A stretch of DNA of 20,000 nucleotides from Vermamoeba vermiformis (Eukaryota), in NCBI GenBank assembly GCA_045837725.1, contig JBEWZL010000049.1, positions 121,079 through 141,078 on the forward strand, in the 5' to 3' direction. Of the stretch, positions 66-12,083 are shown piece after piece. A program made the position numbers and the translations under genes. The notes beneath the pieces were generated by a model. The model was not told the origin of the DNA. It saw only the letters and a program-made list of their open reading frames with translations, and searched no databases. Every line of letters begins with the position of its first letter. Position 1 is the first letter of the stretch.

Positions 66-1318
66 ATGGCCGCTAGTGTAAGTTATTAACACTGCAATTT
101 GATCGTATCTAAGCAATCACATCTAACGTAGCTTCTTACAACCGACAGGTCGAAGCCGTAAACTCTTTCACTCGTGAATTTTTGATTCAATTCGAGCAGG
201 TAAATATCAACGTGCAAGCTCATGATTTAATTCGTGCTCACATCCTGTCTTGTTTAGAAAGTCTCTGTTCCTTCTCAATTGAAAGAACGCATCTTTGAAC
301 TCGTCCTCTCAAGAGGAGAGGCGTTGGCTGTCAAGAAGCCCAAGGTAAATTGAATTTATTTTCTCATCGGCATCTGATTTTTATTAACTTGTAATTCTTC
401 AATTAGGTTAAGCGCCCCGCTCAAACTGATTCTGACGTGGCCTCAACTAAGACCGCTTCTAAGACTTTGGTCAAGGCTAAATCGCAATCTGCCATCCAAA
501 AGCCCGCCAAAAAGTCAACCAAGGCTGAAGAGAACGCCGTCGCTGTCGTCGCTAAGCCCGCGATTAAGGTTGCTGCCGAGAAGCCCGCCCAACCTGCTAA
601 GGAACGAAAGGCTCTGGCTCCAATCGTTGCCAACAAGACTTCAACTGCCTCCGCTTTGAAGCCCAAGAACGTTACTATTGCCGCCCCTAAGGCTACCACT
701 GCTGCTGCCGTCGTTGCCAAGACTGCTGCTCCTTCTAAGGCTGTCGCTGTCGATAAGGAGAACGACGCCAATGCTGCTAAGAGCTCCGTAATCAACATTG
801 CCAAGGGTGTTGCTGCTATCACCAAGGCCGCTCTCAAGCCTCAAGTGCAAAAGCCTGCTGTTGCCAAGACAGTCAAGCCTGCCGCTCCTGTCGCCGTTGC
901 CGCCAAGCCTGTGCCCGCCATTCCTCAAGAGGATGAAGCTCCTGAGGGTGGTGAGTCAGACGAGGCTCGTCTCCGTGCTCGTCAAAAGCAAATCGAGTAC
1001 GGCAAGAACACCGATGGCTACAGAAACTACGTCGCCAAGGTGCCCAAGGACCAACGCGTCAAGGGCATGCCCTCTACTCCTGACAAGTACCAAAAGTGCA
1101 GCAAGCGCAGCTGGGACGGTCAAGTTCGCAAGTGGCGCCGTCAGTTGCACGCTTACGACCCTGCTCCCGCTCCCCTCAGCGACGACTTGGACCTCATCGA
1201 TGGCGAAGACTTGTCGACTCGCTTCAACGAGCTTCAATTGGGTCAAGGATCCTTGAAGGCTACTGACGCTTTCTCCTTGGAGGACAAGCCCAGAGCCGTC
1301 AAGGTCTTGCAGTTCTAA
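66..1318 (+). CDS. SLBP: Histone mRNA stem-loop binding protein (SLBP), about 353 aa, 4 exons: 66-77, 149-199, 258-344, 407-1318
   Basis: The C-terminal segment (953-1162) ESDEARLRARQKQIEYGKNTDGYRNY...PSTPDK...SKRSWDGQVRKWRRQLHAYDP matches the SLBP RNA-binding domain (RQKQIxYGKNT, TPxK, SxRSWDxQ..W+..LH..DP). GT-AG introns 78-148, 200-257 and 345-406 keep one frame. An in-frame TAA at 57-59 fixes ATG 66 as the start. Codon usage is strongly biased (AAG/GCC/GCT/GTC). Confidence 0.93.
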
Positions 1319-3355: not shown

Positions 3356-5881
3356 ATGAGCTCTAATAAGGATTTTAAAAAACGAAGGGGCGAAGACGAA
3401 ATGGATGATAGAGAACAAAAGCGTCGACGAGGAGATCACGAGGGTGATCGCTCAAGATCTTATTATAATTCTCGATCTACGGACAAAAAAAGACACAACA
3501 GGAATAATTACAATAATGGGCAAAGCCAGAACTATTCAAATAATAGAAAATCGTCCAAAAATTATACAGATCGCAATAATAATTTAGCCTATTCACCAAA
3601 AAATTATAATCAGCCTCAATATCGAAGAAAAGAGTCGGATGATCATAATAGAAATATTGAGAAAAAAGAGTACAAGAAGAAGCTCACCATCCATCTTGTT
3701 TCAGATAACACGACACAGCACGCAGGAAATAATAGGACCCTGCATTTCAATTTTGTAAATAATAATATTAAGAGTAACCAATCGAATCAAAGTCCTCAAC
3801 AACCCAAAGTGTCAAGCCCATCCACGAATGACACAAAAACAGAGCCAGCGCCACCTCTTCCAGGCTATTACTACGACCCCGATATCAATAGGTACTTTAA
3901 AGTGCCACCGACAGGCACAGTAATGTACAAGAAGTACCAAGAGGCGTTGAAAAAGGCCGAGGAAAAGGATCGCAAACAGAAAGAGGAGAGGCAGCAGCGA
4001 GAGGAAAAAGAAAGAATAGAGCGTGGTGTAAATATATCTATATTAAGCGACAAATATAAGAGTCCATTATCAACTCTTATACGAAGAGAAGCTGGTAGAT
4101 CTCAACGACCGAAAGAATTTGTATCGTAAGTGGAATCAATTTTGAATATTCTTATGCTAATATCTATATTTAGCAAATCATTAGCAACGTTATTCAAGCG
4201 GATAGAATGCCGCTATAATTTTCCTTGGCCACTTCCTGACACAGAATGTTATGACATGATTGTACAGAACGATGAGACACTGATAACTGGTTTAAGAGAC
4301 GGCCAATTCATGTACGTCAAGTTACTACATGGACTTATAACCTGACATCATGACTCGCAGGGTTGATAAACTTGAATGGAGAGACAAAGATATTTATGTC
4401 AAAGGATTGTGCACGACAGAATCGAGTTCAGTACGTTAAGACTATCATAATAATTGTTAACATACATTATTGCAGATAAGCTCGGTGGGATTTCATTCAA
4501 AGCACAAGACAATGTACAGGTAGAGTAATTCTCTATTTAAGTTTAATTTTATTGACCGGATATCCGCATTTAGTTCGACTATCCTAGGAGGAGGTCGTAG
4601 CGGCGAATTAAAGCTATATAATTCGCGCCTTCAGTGCGAACATGTAACGAAGCTGCGCAAAGGTTCAATGTGGTGTCATCAATGGTCTGCGAATGGACAA
4701 TACATTTCTATGGGCATCAGCAAGGGTGCCATGATCCTTGATACTGTCACAACGAAGGTGATAAATTGTTTCACTGAAAAGAGCGATGTTTTTGCACAAG
4801 CGTTCACTGAAAACGTATGTCAGATCTACCTGTACAAACATTGTTTCATTTTCGAACTAATCTATTCTCAAGAGCAATATATTATTGAATGGATCACGCG
4901 ATGGCAAGATTCGCACGTTTGATATTCGTCAGCACACGCAACGAACGCCGTTTGGAAGTCACGCGCCACTCATGAAACACGAGTCATCGATCACCTGCTT
5001 GAAGCTGCTGAGGGATGATAACTATCTGGTCTCCAATTCTATAAATGGCGTAGTGAGTATATGACAACGAAGTGCTAATAGAGCCGTTTGTTGATTAAAT
5101 TTTGTCAGATCAACGTTTGGGATCGAAGAGTTAGCAAGGTCGTTACTAGGATGGAGTATTCTAACCAGATGACCTCAAACAAATTCTCCGTTGATCCGGA
5201 CGAAGAGTTTGTATTTATTGGTAAGCTAATTTTAATAACCGACAAGTTGAGAATTCTTAGAGAAGTACATCCGCAACTTCTTGTCTATTTCGTTACCAAA
5301 AAATTGTTGTACTCCCGTAAGTTATTCATAGCAATTAGCGGGGCCCTATTTTTAAGTCTGTTCAGACAACTTAGAAGTACCTTCTCCGAGCCTTGGCTCC
5401 GATCGAAGTGTAGTATCTGTTCTGCTTAGTTTAATCTCTAAGCCTGCCAGCCACCGCGCTGTGCATCGATGATTGAACAATTTATTCTTAGAGGGTCGCG
5501 GCGTGAGTTTGAGTTCAGATTGGCTTGCTGGTTTGAACTTGACTTGCGAACGGATCAGACGTGCATTGTACAACAGGCCGTAGTTGGTCCCCCTCTCTTT
5601 TTATTTTTGATACTATTTTTTTTAAGCTTAATAGCCCCTTAATAATTGGATGCACGCTCATATGGCTGATCTCGATTCCTTTAGGTGGTCAAGATAAGAA
5701 GATTTACATTTGGAACCTTAGAAGTGGCGAGCATATTCATACTTTAGGACCTTATACTACGCCTGTTAAATCGTTAGTGTTTGGAAGAAGCTGGATCCAA
5801 GATCAAATCTGTGTACCAGGTTTTTGGACCTTCCTTAACAATCGCATAGAATTCTATGGCATCTGCAATATAAATATGTAA
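3356..5881 (+). CDS. DCAF4: DCAF4/WDR21-like WD40 protein (putative CRL4-DDB1 substrate receptor), about 583 aa; exons 3356-4125, 4174-4311, 4361-4430, 4476-4519, 4574-4814, 4873-5052, 5109-5220, 5685-5881
   Basis: LPGYYYDPDINRYFKV resembles the DCAF4 N-terminal PGxYxDPxxxRYF motif. WD40 blades include LLNGSRDGKIRTFDIR, INVWDRR (WDxR) and GGQDKKIYIWNLR. Splicing gives a continuous frame (1752 nt). Confidence 0.82.
5313..5355 (+). promoter_or_regulatory. Candidate snRNA promoter: DUSE-like element TCCCGTAA (5313-5320) and AT-rich box TATTTTTAA (5347-5355)
   Basis: One mismatch to the Dictyostelium upstream sequence element (A/T)CCCA(C/T)AA. It starts 63 nt before the predicted U2 5' end at about 5376, the spacing known for DUSE. 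Confidence 0.55.
5376..5596 (+). ncRNA. U2: U2 spliceosomal snRNA (divergent), inside intron 7 (5221-5684) of the WD40 gene
   Basis: AAGTGTAGTATCTGTTCT with branch-site recognition sequence GTAGTA (5410-5415). Stem IIa GCTTAG-TTTAATCT-CTAAGC (5424-5443). Stem IIb TGCCAGC/GCTGTGCA. IIc pairing GTTTAATC (5429-5436) with GATTGAAC (5471-5478). Sm-like site AATTTATTCTTAG (5479-5491). Long stem III capped by GCTTGC. Stem IV with loop ATTGTAC (5565-5571). Ends are approximate. Confidence 0.92.
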
Positions 5882-5892
5882 ATAAAAGGCGA

Positions 5893-6780
5893 TTATTTAT
5901 TCTGGAAGAAATAGGCTAAGCCTGCTACAACTAAAGAAACTCCGAAAAATATATTTCTTCGCGAGATCCATGATTTACAATTGCGAAGTCTTTGAATGAG
6001 CGATGCGACTTGTTTTTGGGTGTCTTCGAGCGAGTTTGAATTATCTACGACTACGTTGGCTAGTTTCTTCTTAGTCTCAAGCGATAACTGCGCATTGATC
6101 ATGTCTTTTGCCGCGGGTTCTTCAATGCTGTTGCGCTTCATTAATCTGATAGAAAATCAATTAGATTACGTAATCTATGATATAATAATATATTTACCTT
6201 TCTAACTGGGTTTCATAAGGAGTATAGACGACCACGACAAGGTTGCAGATCCGGTTCAATTTCGCTTCGAATAATAACGGCGAGTCTAAAATAAGACATT
6301 GCGTTCCTCGAAGCCAATTCCATACTACTATTTTGCAAATCTCCCACATTATATAAGGAAATGTAATCCCGTTCAATTTCATGCGCTCTTCTTTCGATCC
6401 AAATATTTTCTAATTTTCTAAAATTAGCCTGATTGAATCTTATTCAATATAAAGCTCGAACTTACTGCGCCTAATTTCTTTCGATCGATATTTCCATCTT
6501 CTAGCAGAATATCAGTGCCCCAAGTCTTTACGATCTTCTTGTAAGCAGGTTTGCCGACTTGCACCAGCTAAAAATTAATTAGAATATTTCAATTAATTTA
6601 TTTTACGTACATCTCTGCCAATCTGATCGAGGTCTATGACAACAGCCTCTGAATAATGTTCCTAAAATTATTAAAATTAAATAAGGCGGAACGAGAGGAC
6701 TTAGCAGGACTTACTCGGAACATCTTAGCGACCGTTGACTTGCCAGACGATATCCCTCCTGTAAGTCCAACTATATACAT
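5893..6780 (-). CDS. DCAKD: Dephospho-CoA kinase (CoaE/DCAKD family) with C-terminal hydrophobic anchor, about 227 aa; exons 6780-6715, 6661-6611, 6567-6466, 6409-6198, 6145-5893
   Basis: MYIVGLTGGISSGKSTV P-loop, VIDLDQIGR, DGNIDRKKLGAKIF, ILDSPLLFE, QLERLMKRN and VVVDNS are CoaE motifs. The tail IFFGVSLVVAGLAYFF is hydrophobic. Confidence 0.93.

Positions 6781-6892: not shown

Positions 6893-12083
<5,191 letters not shown>

Follow-up and report, generated by a model that had tools for sequence, protein, structure and literature searches.

Intron 7 of a DCAF4/WDR21-like gene of Vermamoeba vermiformis contains, on its sense strand, a gene for the U2 small nuclear RNA (snRNA), and this nested gene is probably a transcription unit of its own, judging from the conserved sequences that accompany it in the intron. 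Both genes lie in a stretch of 20,000 nucleotides (nt) of contig JBEWZL010000049.1 (GenBank assembly GCA_045837725.1, positions 121,079 to 141,078 of the forward strand, read 5' to 3'); this whole stretch is referred to here as the window, and all coordinates are those of the window. The parts of the account that we infer are the role of the conserved upstream blocks as a promoter, transcription independent of the host, and the polymerase that acts on the gene.

A cmscan search of the whole 20-kb window with Rfam returned a single match at the gathering threshold, to the U2 family (RF00004) on the plus strand at 5379-5597; the match covers model positions 1-192 of 192 with 56.3 bits (E 5.6e-09), where the gathering score is 46, and a permissive Rfam scan of 5100-5800 (E<=1) gave nothing besides U2. 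A preliminary description of this DNA, made from the letters alone, had recognized the elements of U2 in the intron and proposed that the Rfam model be run on the window, and the full-model match bears out that recognition. Stems I, IIa, IIb, a long III, and IV are all found, by covariance alignment, minimum free energy (MFE) fold and consensus fold, together with the GUAGUA hexamer and an Sm-like site. The segment GUGUAGUAUCUGUUCU, inspected for the branch-point hexamer and for the 5' region that pairs with U6, is exactly the Rfam consensus, with one extra G before it (GAUCGAAG), and is invariant among the copies of the U2 clade formed by the window and two related metagenomic loci, L005 and L015/L007. 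The consensus fold of the three clade copies has 78 pairs, with one compensatory A-U/G-C pair and several one-sided changes. The z-score of the MFE fold is weak by itself (-1.52), so the case for U2 rests on the covariance model and on the comparison of copies. By identity 5379-5597 is a genuine U2 snRNA gene, and its elements are the following.

5379-5597, plus strand: U2 snRNA coding region, about 219 nt, with ends uncertain by a few nt
5410-5415, plus strand: branch-point recognition hexamer GUAGUA, invariant across the clade copies
5424-5429 paired with 5438-5443, plus strand: stem IIa, from the Rfam alignment and the folds
5479-5487, plus strand: Sm-like site AAUUUAUUC, non-canonical and invariant in the three clade copies

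Aligned to the Rfam consensus AUUUUUgg, AAUUUAUUC has an A that interrupts the U run, lacks a following G, and nowhere has four U or more in a row; in comparison with the Rfam consensus, two U are missing from the loop of stem I.

The host gene and the intron that carries U2 are laid out as follows.

3356-5881, plus strand: host gene with 8 exons, encoding a DCAF4/WDR21-like WD40 protein of 583 amino acids (aa)
3356-4125, 4174-4311, 4361-4430, 4476-4519, 4574-4814, 4873-5052, 5109-5220 and 5685-5881, plus strand: host exons
5221-5684, plus strand: intron 7 of the host, 464 nt, GTAAGC...TTTAG, containing the entire U2 cassette
5665-5671, plus strand: likely branch-site region of intron 7, GCTGATC, 13 nt before the 3' splice site, predicted from the sequence alone

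The gene model keeps its frame throughout and has one stop, at the end. Exon 6 has a Pfam match to Beta-prop_DCAF4 (31.4 bits), the Atlas clusters nearest to the host orthologue are WDR21/DCAF4, and a 583-aa protein from public assemblies, P0001, aligns with the host protein end to end at 73% identity. Introns 1 to 7 measure 48, 49, 45, 54, 58, 56 and 464 nt, intron 7 thus being about 8-10 times the length of its neighbours; intron 4 would be 60 nt with an alternative donor at 4514, and a 2-residue gap in the P0001 alignment favours the donor at 4520. The junction across intron 7 is gap-free in the same alignment (EEFVFIG/GQDKK against EEFVLIGGDDRK, the stroke marking the intron). Splicing is seen in contig 6 of library X2 (151 nt, 0 differences from the window), in which 5109-5219 is followed directly by 5684-5712, the 464 nt left out having GT..AG ends, and in which the end of exon 6 precedes exon 7; introns 6 and 7 are thus spliced out where the model places them. 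This evidence is a single contig with a depth of 4, from a library listed as 'RNA? (a guess: may be DNA)', and the contig is read as RNA because it is spliced. The length of intron 7 given in the preliminary description, as against 45-58 nt for the other introns of the host, is accordingly confirmed by the gene model, the X2 contig and the P0001 alignment, and the spliced sequence that it called for across 5220/5685 exists, in that one contig from a library of guessed type, with exactly 464 nt skipped. The segment 5221-5684 is one intron, removed as predicted, with U2 in its sense strand.

To find relatives of the gene, metagenome contigs were scanned for a 23-nt word taken from the window U2, in its invariant 5' portion; the scan yielded 16 loci, 15 of them with an Rfam U2. 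The close relatives are L005, L015 and L007 only, at about 89% identity over about 250 nt; L015 and L007 represent a single locus, with 99.9% identity over 832 nt, and L005 is distinct, the common part being just the U2 region. The clade copies other than that of the window score 60.4-60.7 bits with the Rfam U2 model. At L005 the host is a DDX1-like gene with the same orientation as U2. The U2-bearing intron (418 nt, GT-AG) interrupts a SPRY domain, of which Pfam positions 1-46 precede the intron and 40-89 follow it, and Helicase_C comes downstream on the same strand. The U2 of L015/L007 lies in a 592-nt GT-AG intron whose two flanking exons, of alpha/beta-hydrolase type, are joined in frame and match Abhydrolase_11 at the consecutive profile positions 67-109 (E 0.0076) and 125-167 (E 0.075). 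A word-index search with exon 3 of the L015 host gave no homologue; the homologues came from a full HMMER search, in which 19 of 78 (190-300 aa) match all three exons, 18 of these 19 colinearly, and in one of them, P0027, the match of exon 2 spans 102-146 and that of exon 3 spans 147-221. The clade is thus nested in the sense strand of an intron at all three of its loci (window, L005 and L015/L007), within three unrelated hosts. The DCAF4-like host gene is absent from the 16 metagenome loci, and tblastx found no synteny among them beyond U2; a tblastn match of L006 to the host gene (E 0.38) was taken as chance. For the orthologous intron, which the preliminary description proposed to examine in related species, the outcome is positive in one close relative and in that relative alone: a contig of X1 runs from the 5' part of the window intron (5235-5280) into U2.

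The other 12 U2 loci belong to other lineages, include canonical 190-nt U2s, and were used as controls. Six of the scanned loci (L001, L002, L003, L004, L006 and L011) are AT-rich contigs (24-31% GC) with short U2 genes (110-132 nt, 55-64 bits). The frames that flank U2 in them resemble, we presume, the ribosomal proteins L10 and L15 (RPL10/RPL15-like), two of the contigs (L002 and L011) also contain transfer RNA (tRNA) genes, and the whole looks like a very compact eukaryotic genome. Two further loci (L014:433-636 and L016:3236-3439, minus strand) have a U2-like sequence (49.3 and 46.7 bits) that passes straight into a long reverse-transcriptase-like frame (…FADDLKLYS…), a fusion that we take to resemble a U2-targeting retrotransposon without long terminal repeats (non-LTR), of the Utopia kind.

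Alignment of the introns of the window, L005 and L015 sets the limits of a shared unit around U2, with the following parts; negative positions count back from the start of the RNA.

5251-5264, plus strand: distal conserved block GAATTCTTAGAGAA, -128 to -115, the approximate 5' limit of the shared cassette
5288-5297, plus strand: conserved block TTTCGTTACC, -91 to -82, with TTTCGTnAC invariant at all three loci
5313-5321, plus strand: element TCCCGTAAG, resembling an upstream or proximal sequence element (USE/PSE-like), -66 to -58, with TCCCrTAA kept at all three loci
5347-5356, plus strand: TATA-like box TATTTTTAAG, -32 to -23, with counterparts in the same position in L015 and the loose end of the X1 relative
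5363-5378, plus strand: start-proximal block CAGACAACTTAGAAGT, -16 to -1, in which the AGAAGT just before the RNA is invariant at all loci
5598-5608, plus strand: T5-A-T5 run, candidate terminator, directly after stem IV, the 3' limit of the shared cassette

The consensus of the blocks over the three introns reads GrATTCTkA (-128), TTTCGTnAC (-91), TCCCrTAA (-66), a TATA-like box (-32) and CAGAyAAnTyAGAAGT. Between TCCCrTAAnn and the TATA-like box lie 24, 24 and about 25 nt at the three loci, and the combined pattern of TCCCrTAA and TATA-like box occurs once in the window, against 0.02 expected, and in L005 and L015 nowhere except upstream of U2. Downstream, GGTCCCCCTCTyTTTTTATTTTT is kept at all three loci, and similarity stops after it. 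Between loci the region from -128 to -1 is 58-60% identical, with the identity concentrated in the same blocks, whereas the U2 genes of L005 and L015 are 98.7% identical to each other; concentration of the identity in blocks suggests selection on these blocks rather than a recent copy. Similarity fades on the 5' side of the distal block, with 10-12 of 30-35 columns alike over the opening 30 nt of each intron, and the 3' tails of the three U2-bearing introns are unrelated, as would be expected of a cassette lodged in unrelated introns. A unit of about 360 bp, at roughly 5251-5608, therefore looks like a cassette of promoter, gene and terminator.

These limits bear directly on the idea of a mobile intron, an introner-like element carrying U2 whose insertion would have made the U2 introns. 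The presence of U2-bearing introns in three different genes would fit such an origin, as would the similar distance of the U2 start from the 5' splice site in the window (158 nt) and in L005 (157 nt). The 5' part of the L015 intron is, however, 143 nt longer, and intron similarity ends at about -130 and just after the T-run, with the first 30 nt and the 3' tails unrelated; an introner origin is accordingly rejected as highly improbable. The reading that we prefer, of a U2 transcription unit nested in the sense strand of its host, has instead a cassette that apparently entered an ordinary short intron, and such an entry would explain the 464-nt outlier among the introns of the host. The first 40 nt of intron 7 (5221-5260) have GT...AG ends of their own and a CTAAT-like motif, and may be the remnant of the original short intron that received the cassette. 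The host polymerase would then pass through U2, and the intron would be spliced normally. Finding the same cassette in sense introns of two unrelated genes of relatives suggests that the U2 genes of this lineage duplicate as promoter-plus-gene units, which would then persist within introns.

The preliminary description had left two ways of making the RNA side by side, a nested gene transcribed in the direction of its host and release from the excised intron. In the second of these U2 would be trimmed from the spliced host intron, in the manner of a small nucleolar RNA (snoRNA), and its supply would depend on the transcription and splicing of the host. Location in a sense-strand intron at every one of the three clade loci is what RNAs of that kind require, and there is no antisense or intergenic copy among these three; the chance probability of three sense orientations out of three is, on the other hand, 1 in 8. 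Unrelated hosts share the conserved upstream blocks, with their set spacing, as well as the TATA-like box at -32, and exonucleolytic trimming needs none of them. To our knowledge no Sm-class snRNA is made by intron processing, and a literature search of open-access text found no description of an intron-derived Sm-class snRNA. We regard this route as rather improbable: release from the excised intron is left unsupported, since a conserved upstream cassette is unexpected for an intron-processed RNA, and the same-direction nested gene gains from the upstream blocks and T-run being kept at two loci with unrelated hosts.

A search of sequencing runs found none with half or more of the window, the best sharing 0.15, and the habitat labels of such low-share runs are given no weight here. 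Raw RNA reads of X24, a run filed under the same species label with another organism code, are confined to the bins 5372-5641, at about 30-45x in the 5' half, with 0 reads on the host exons and 0 on the remainder of intron 7. Stable intron RNAs also outnumber their host messenger RNA (mRNA), and coverage of this kind is for that reason not decisive against an intron-derived U2; as no reads fall on the host exons, X24 is uninformative on host splicing or strain identity. At 5378-5381, 22 of the X24 reads turn back to the opposite strand. A snap-back onto the other strand is the usual complementary DNA (cDNA) artefact at the 5' end of an RNA, and together with the sharp coverage it places an RNA end at 5378-5381, as a transcription start or a processing site. 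In the 3' half the X24 reads depart from the window letters at eight or more places, among them 5466, 5468, 5475, 5478, 5486, 5540, 5560 and 5583, and so derive from another strain or another copy. In a relative, or from another copy, U2 of this type accumulates abundantly as a discrete RNA, and the window variant itself is not seen in the X24 reads.

Several observations weigh against the window copy being an active transcription unit of its own, or against parts of that account. At 5475 and 5478 the other letter is found in 13 of 13 X24 reads and the window letters in 0 of 13. X2, which has 0 differences on the host exons, has no contig on U2, for which poly(A) selection or a filter is a possible cause. 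A 247-nt contig from X4, a root metatranscriptome, spans 5373-5607 with the window letters at 5466-5486 and seven differences beyond; it exceeds the Rfam limits by 6 nt in front and by about 23 nt past 5597, and may be a precursor or read-through, or DNA. L007 begins at the equivalent of 5372 and the X4 contig at 5373, both inside the invariant AGAAGT, so the true 5' end of U2 could lie 6-7 nt upstream of 5379, although a coincidence of contig starts is also possible. The TATA-like box is weak in L005, three loci are a small sample, the Sm site is non-canonical, and the Rfam score is modest, at 10 bits over the threshold.

Some of these same points, namely the 0 of 13 X24 reads with window letters at 5475/5478, the lack of an X2 contig on U2, a score just 10 bits over the threshold and the unusual Sm site, would also be accounted for if the intronic U2 were a silent or decaying duplicate (a pseudogene), with the working genes elsewhere in the genome; nested snRNA families do turn over fast (PMC3342880). 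Against decay, all stems are intact, and the changes relative to L005 and L015 preserve pairing (one compensatory pair and several G-U/G-C switches), the functional single-stranded parts are invariant, and the promoter blocks are retained. The low score and odd Sm site are common to the clade copies, including the type that is abundantly expressed in X24; moreover, the arrangement persists in the close relative X1, and at 5466-5486 the window letters are found in the X4 contig, which comes from an RNA library. A pseudogene is thus an unlikely explanation, and a working U2 gene with its own promoter is the one we carry forward.

As to which polymerase would transcribe such a gene, the features of the sequence leave RNA polymerase III (Pol III) roughly level with RNA polymerase II (Pol II). 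No internal run of four or more T occurs in the window, L005 or L015 copies, the first one (T5/T6) coming directly after stem IV, whereas the other U2 loci have an internal run of this kind in 12 of 12 cases, the largest usually at about the place where the Sm site is expected (the positions being unaligned). Shuffles of the window U2 sequence lack T4 in 24% of cases as well, so the weight rests on the contrast with other U2s. The shortened stem I loop and the AAUUUAUUC Sm site are the two places that hold U runs in ordinary U2. A TATA box is found in Pol II snRNA genes of yeast too, which counts against reading it as a mark of Pol III. In Arabidopsis the spacing of element and TATA is 23-24 bp for Pol III and 32-34 bp for Pol II, and in humans and green algae it is the Pol III type of upstream promoter that contains TATA (PMC8287931). 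The gap of 24-25 nt at the clade loci equals the Arabidopsis Pol III value if that value is counted from the end of the element to the start of TATA; counted from start to start the distance is 34 nt, and the Arabidopsis rule may not transfer to this organism. Taken together, the lack of an internal T4, the altered Sm site, the T-run and the TATA-like box suit Pol III no less well than Pol II.

A more specific proposal, which we put forward tentatively as a possibility somewhat short of an even chance, is that U2 in this lineage has switched to Pol III, with an upstream promoter containing TATA 24 nt from the upstream element, a T5-T6 end, loss of both U runs, and the Sm site AAUUUAUUC. A Pol III unit without Pol II 3'-end signals could sit in the sense strand of a host without truncating it, and if the switch is real it would explain both the sense introns at three of three loci and the spread of the cassette among them. 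It would also be a change of U2 polymerase outside the trypanosomatids, with matching changes of the Sm site.

The surroundings of the host gene include other recognizable genes. Its stop codon (5879-5881) faces a convergent CoaE-like frame (5893-6156, minus strand) that ends about 12 nt away, so that the 3' ends of the two genes must overlap, and the region around the 3' end of the host is very gene-dense. Elsewhere in the window, a frame at 407-1318 (plus strand) has the RNA-binding domain of histone RNA hairpin-binding protein (SLBP; Pfam 111.4 bits), and exons of a CHD-type chromatin remodeller lie at 8612-10300 (plus strand; Chromo 56.7 bits, SNF2-related 103.5 bits). The SLBP domain, taken with the DDX1-like host at L005, suggests a lineage outside the dikaryotic fungi.

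A core spliceosomal RNA gene that lies inside an intron will be missed by annotation based on proteins. Should the pattern of cassettes in sense introns hold genome-wide, it would offer a simple system in which a highly expressed small-RNA gene and its host share DNA.

Nesting as such is less exceptional than the preliminary description had it. Of the 120 snRNA genes of C. elegans, 47 are located within protein-gene introns, with fast turnover (PMC3342880), intronic snRNA loci that have an upstream motif do not depend on the host for their expression (PMC2527325), and human RNU4ATAC lies antisense in intron 2 of CLASP1 (PMC12703291). The window U2 is like the nested snRNAs of Caenorhabditis and Drosophila in that a whole gene with its own upstream motif lies in an intron and belongs to multi-copy families that move between hosts (PMC3342880; PMC2527325). 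It is unlike them in its setting, those genomes having many long introns whereas the other introns of this host are 45-58 nt, in the sense orientation at all three loci, and in the TATA-like box, most C. elegans PSE loci being described as TATA-less (PMC2527325). RNU4ATAC is likewise a spliceosomal snRNA gene inside an intron of a protein gene and an independent unit, and differs in belonging to the minor spliceosome and in being antisense to its host (PMC12703291).

The arrangement of the cassette, with an upstream element near -60/-70, TATA near -30 and a T-rich terminator, is like that of the type 3 snRNA promoters of plants and ciliates, where the choice between Pol II and Pol III depends on the spacing or on whether TATA is present (PMC8287931); the sequence of the window element is only loosely similar, and the organism has a fungus-like or protist-like rather than a plant-like appearance. 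Trypanosomatid U2 is transcribed by Pol III, from a promoter of extragenic tRNA and tRNA-like elements (PMC4950102), whereas the putative promoter in the window is an upstream one containing TATA; a search of the window with ARAGORN, made with tRNA-type promoter elements in mind, found 0 tRNAs.

Like the snoRNAs encoded in introns, the U2 described here lies in the sense strand of a host intron, and its type, to judge by the X24 reads, would be a small stable RNA far more abundant than the host mRNA; those snoRNAs, however, lack a promoter and arise by trimming of the spliced intron, whereas this U2 has a conserved promoter-like cassette alongside it. No description of U2 genes in introns of fungi or of similar organisms with short introns was found in open-access text. 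Nested snRNA genes are thus already known, and what is particular here is their occurrence in a genome with introns of about 50 nt, where the intron is some 10 times the local norm because of the nested gene, in the sense orientation at three loci, and with Pol III-like features.

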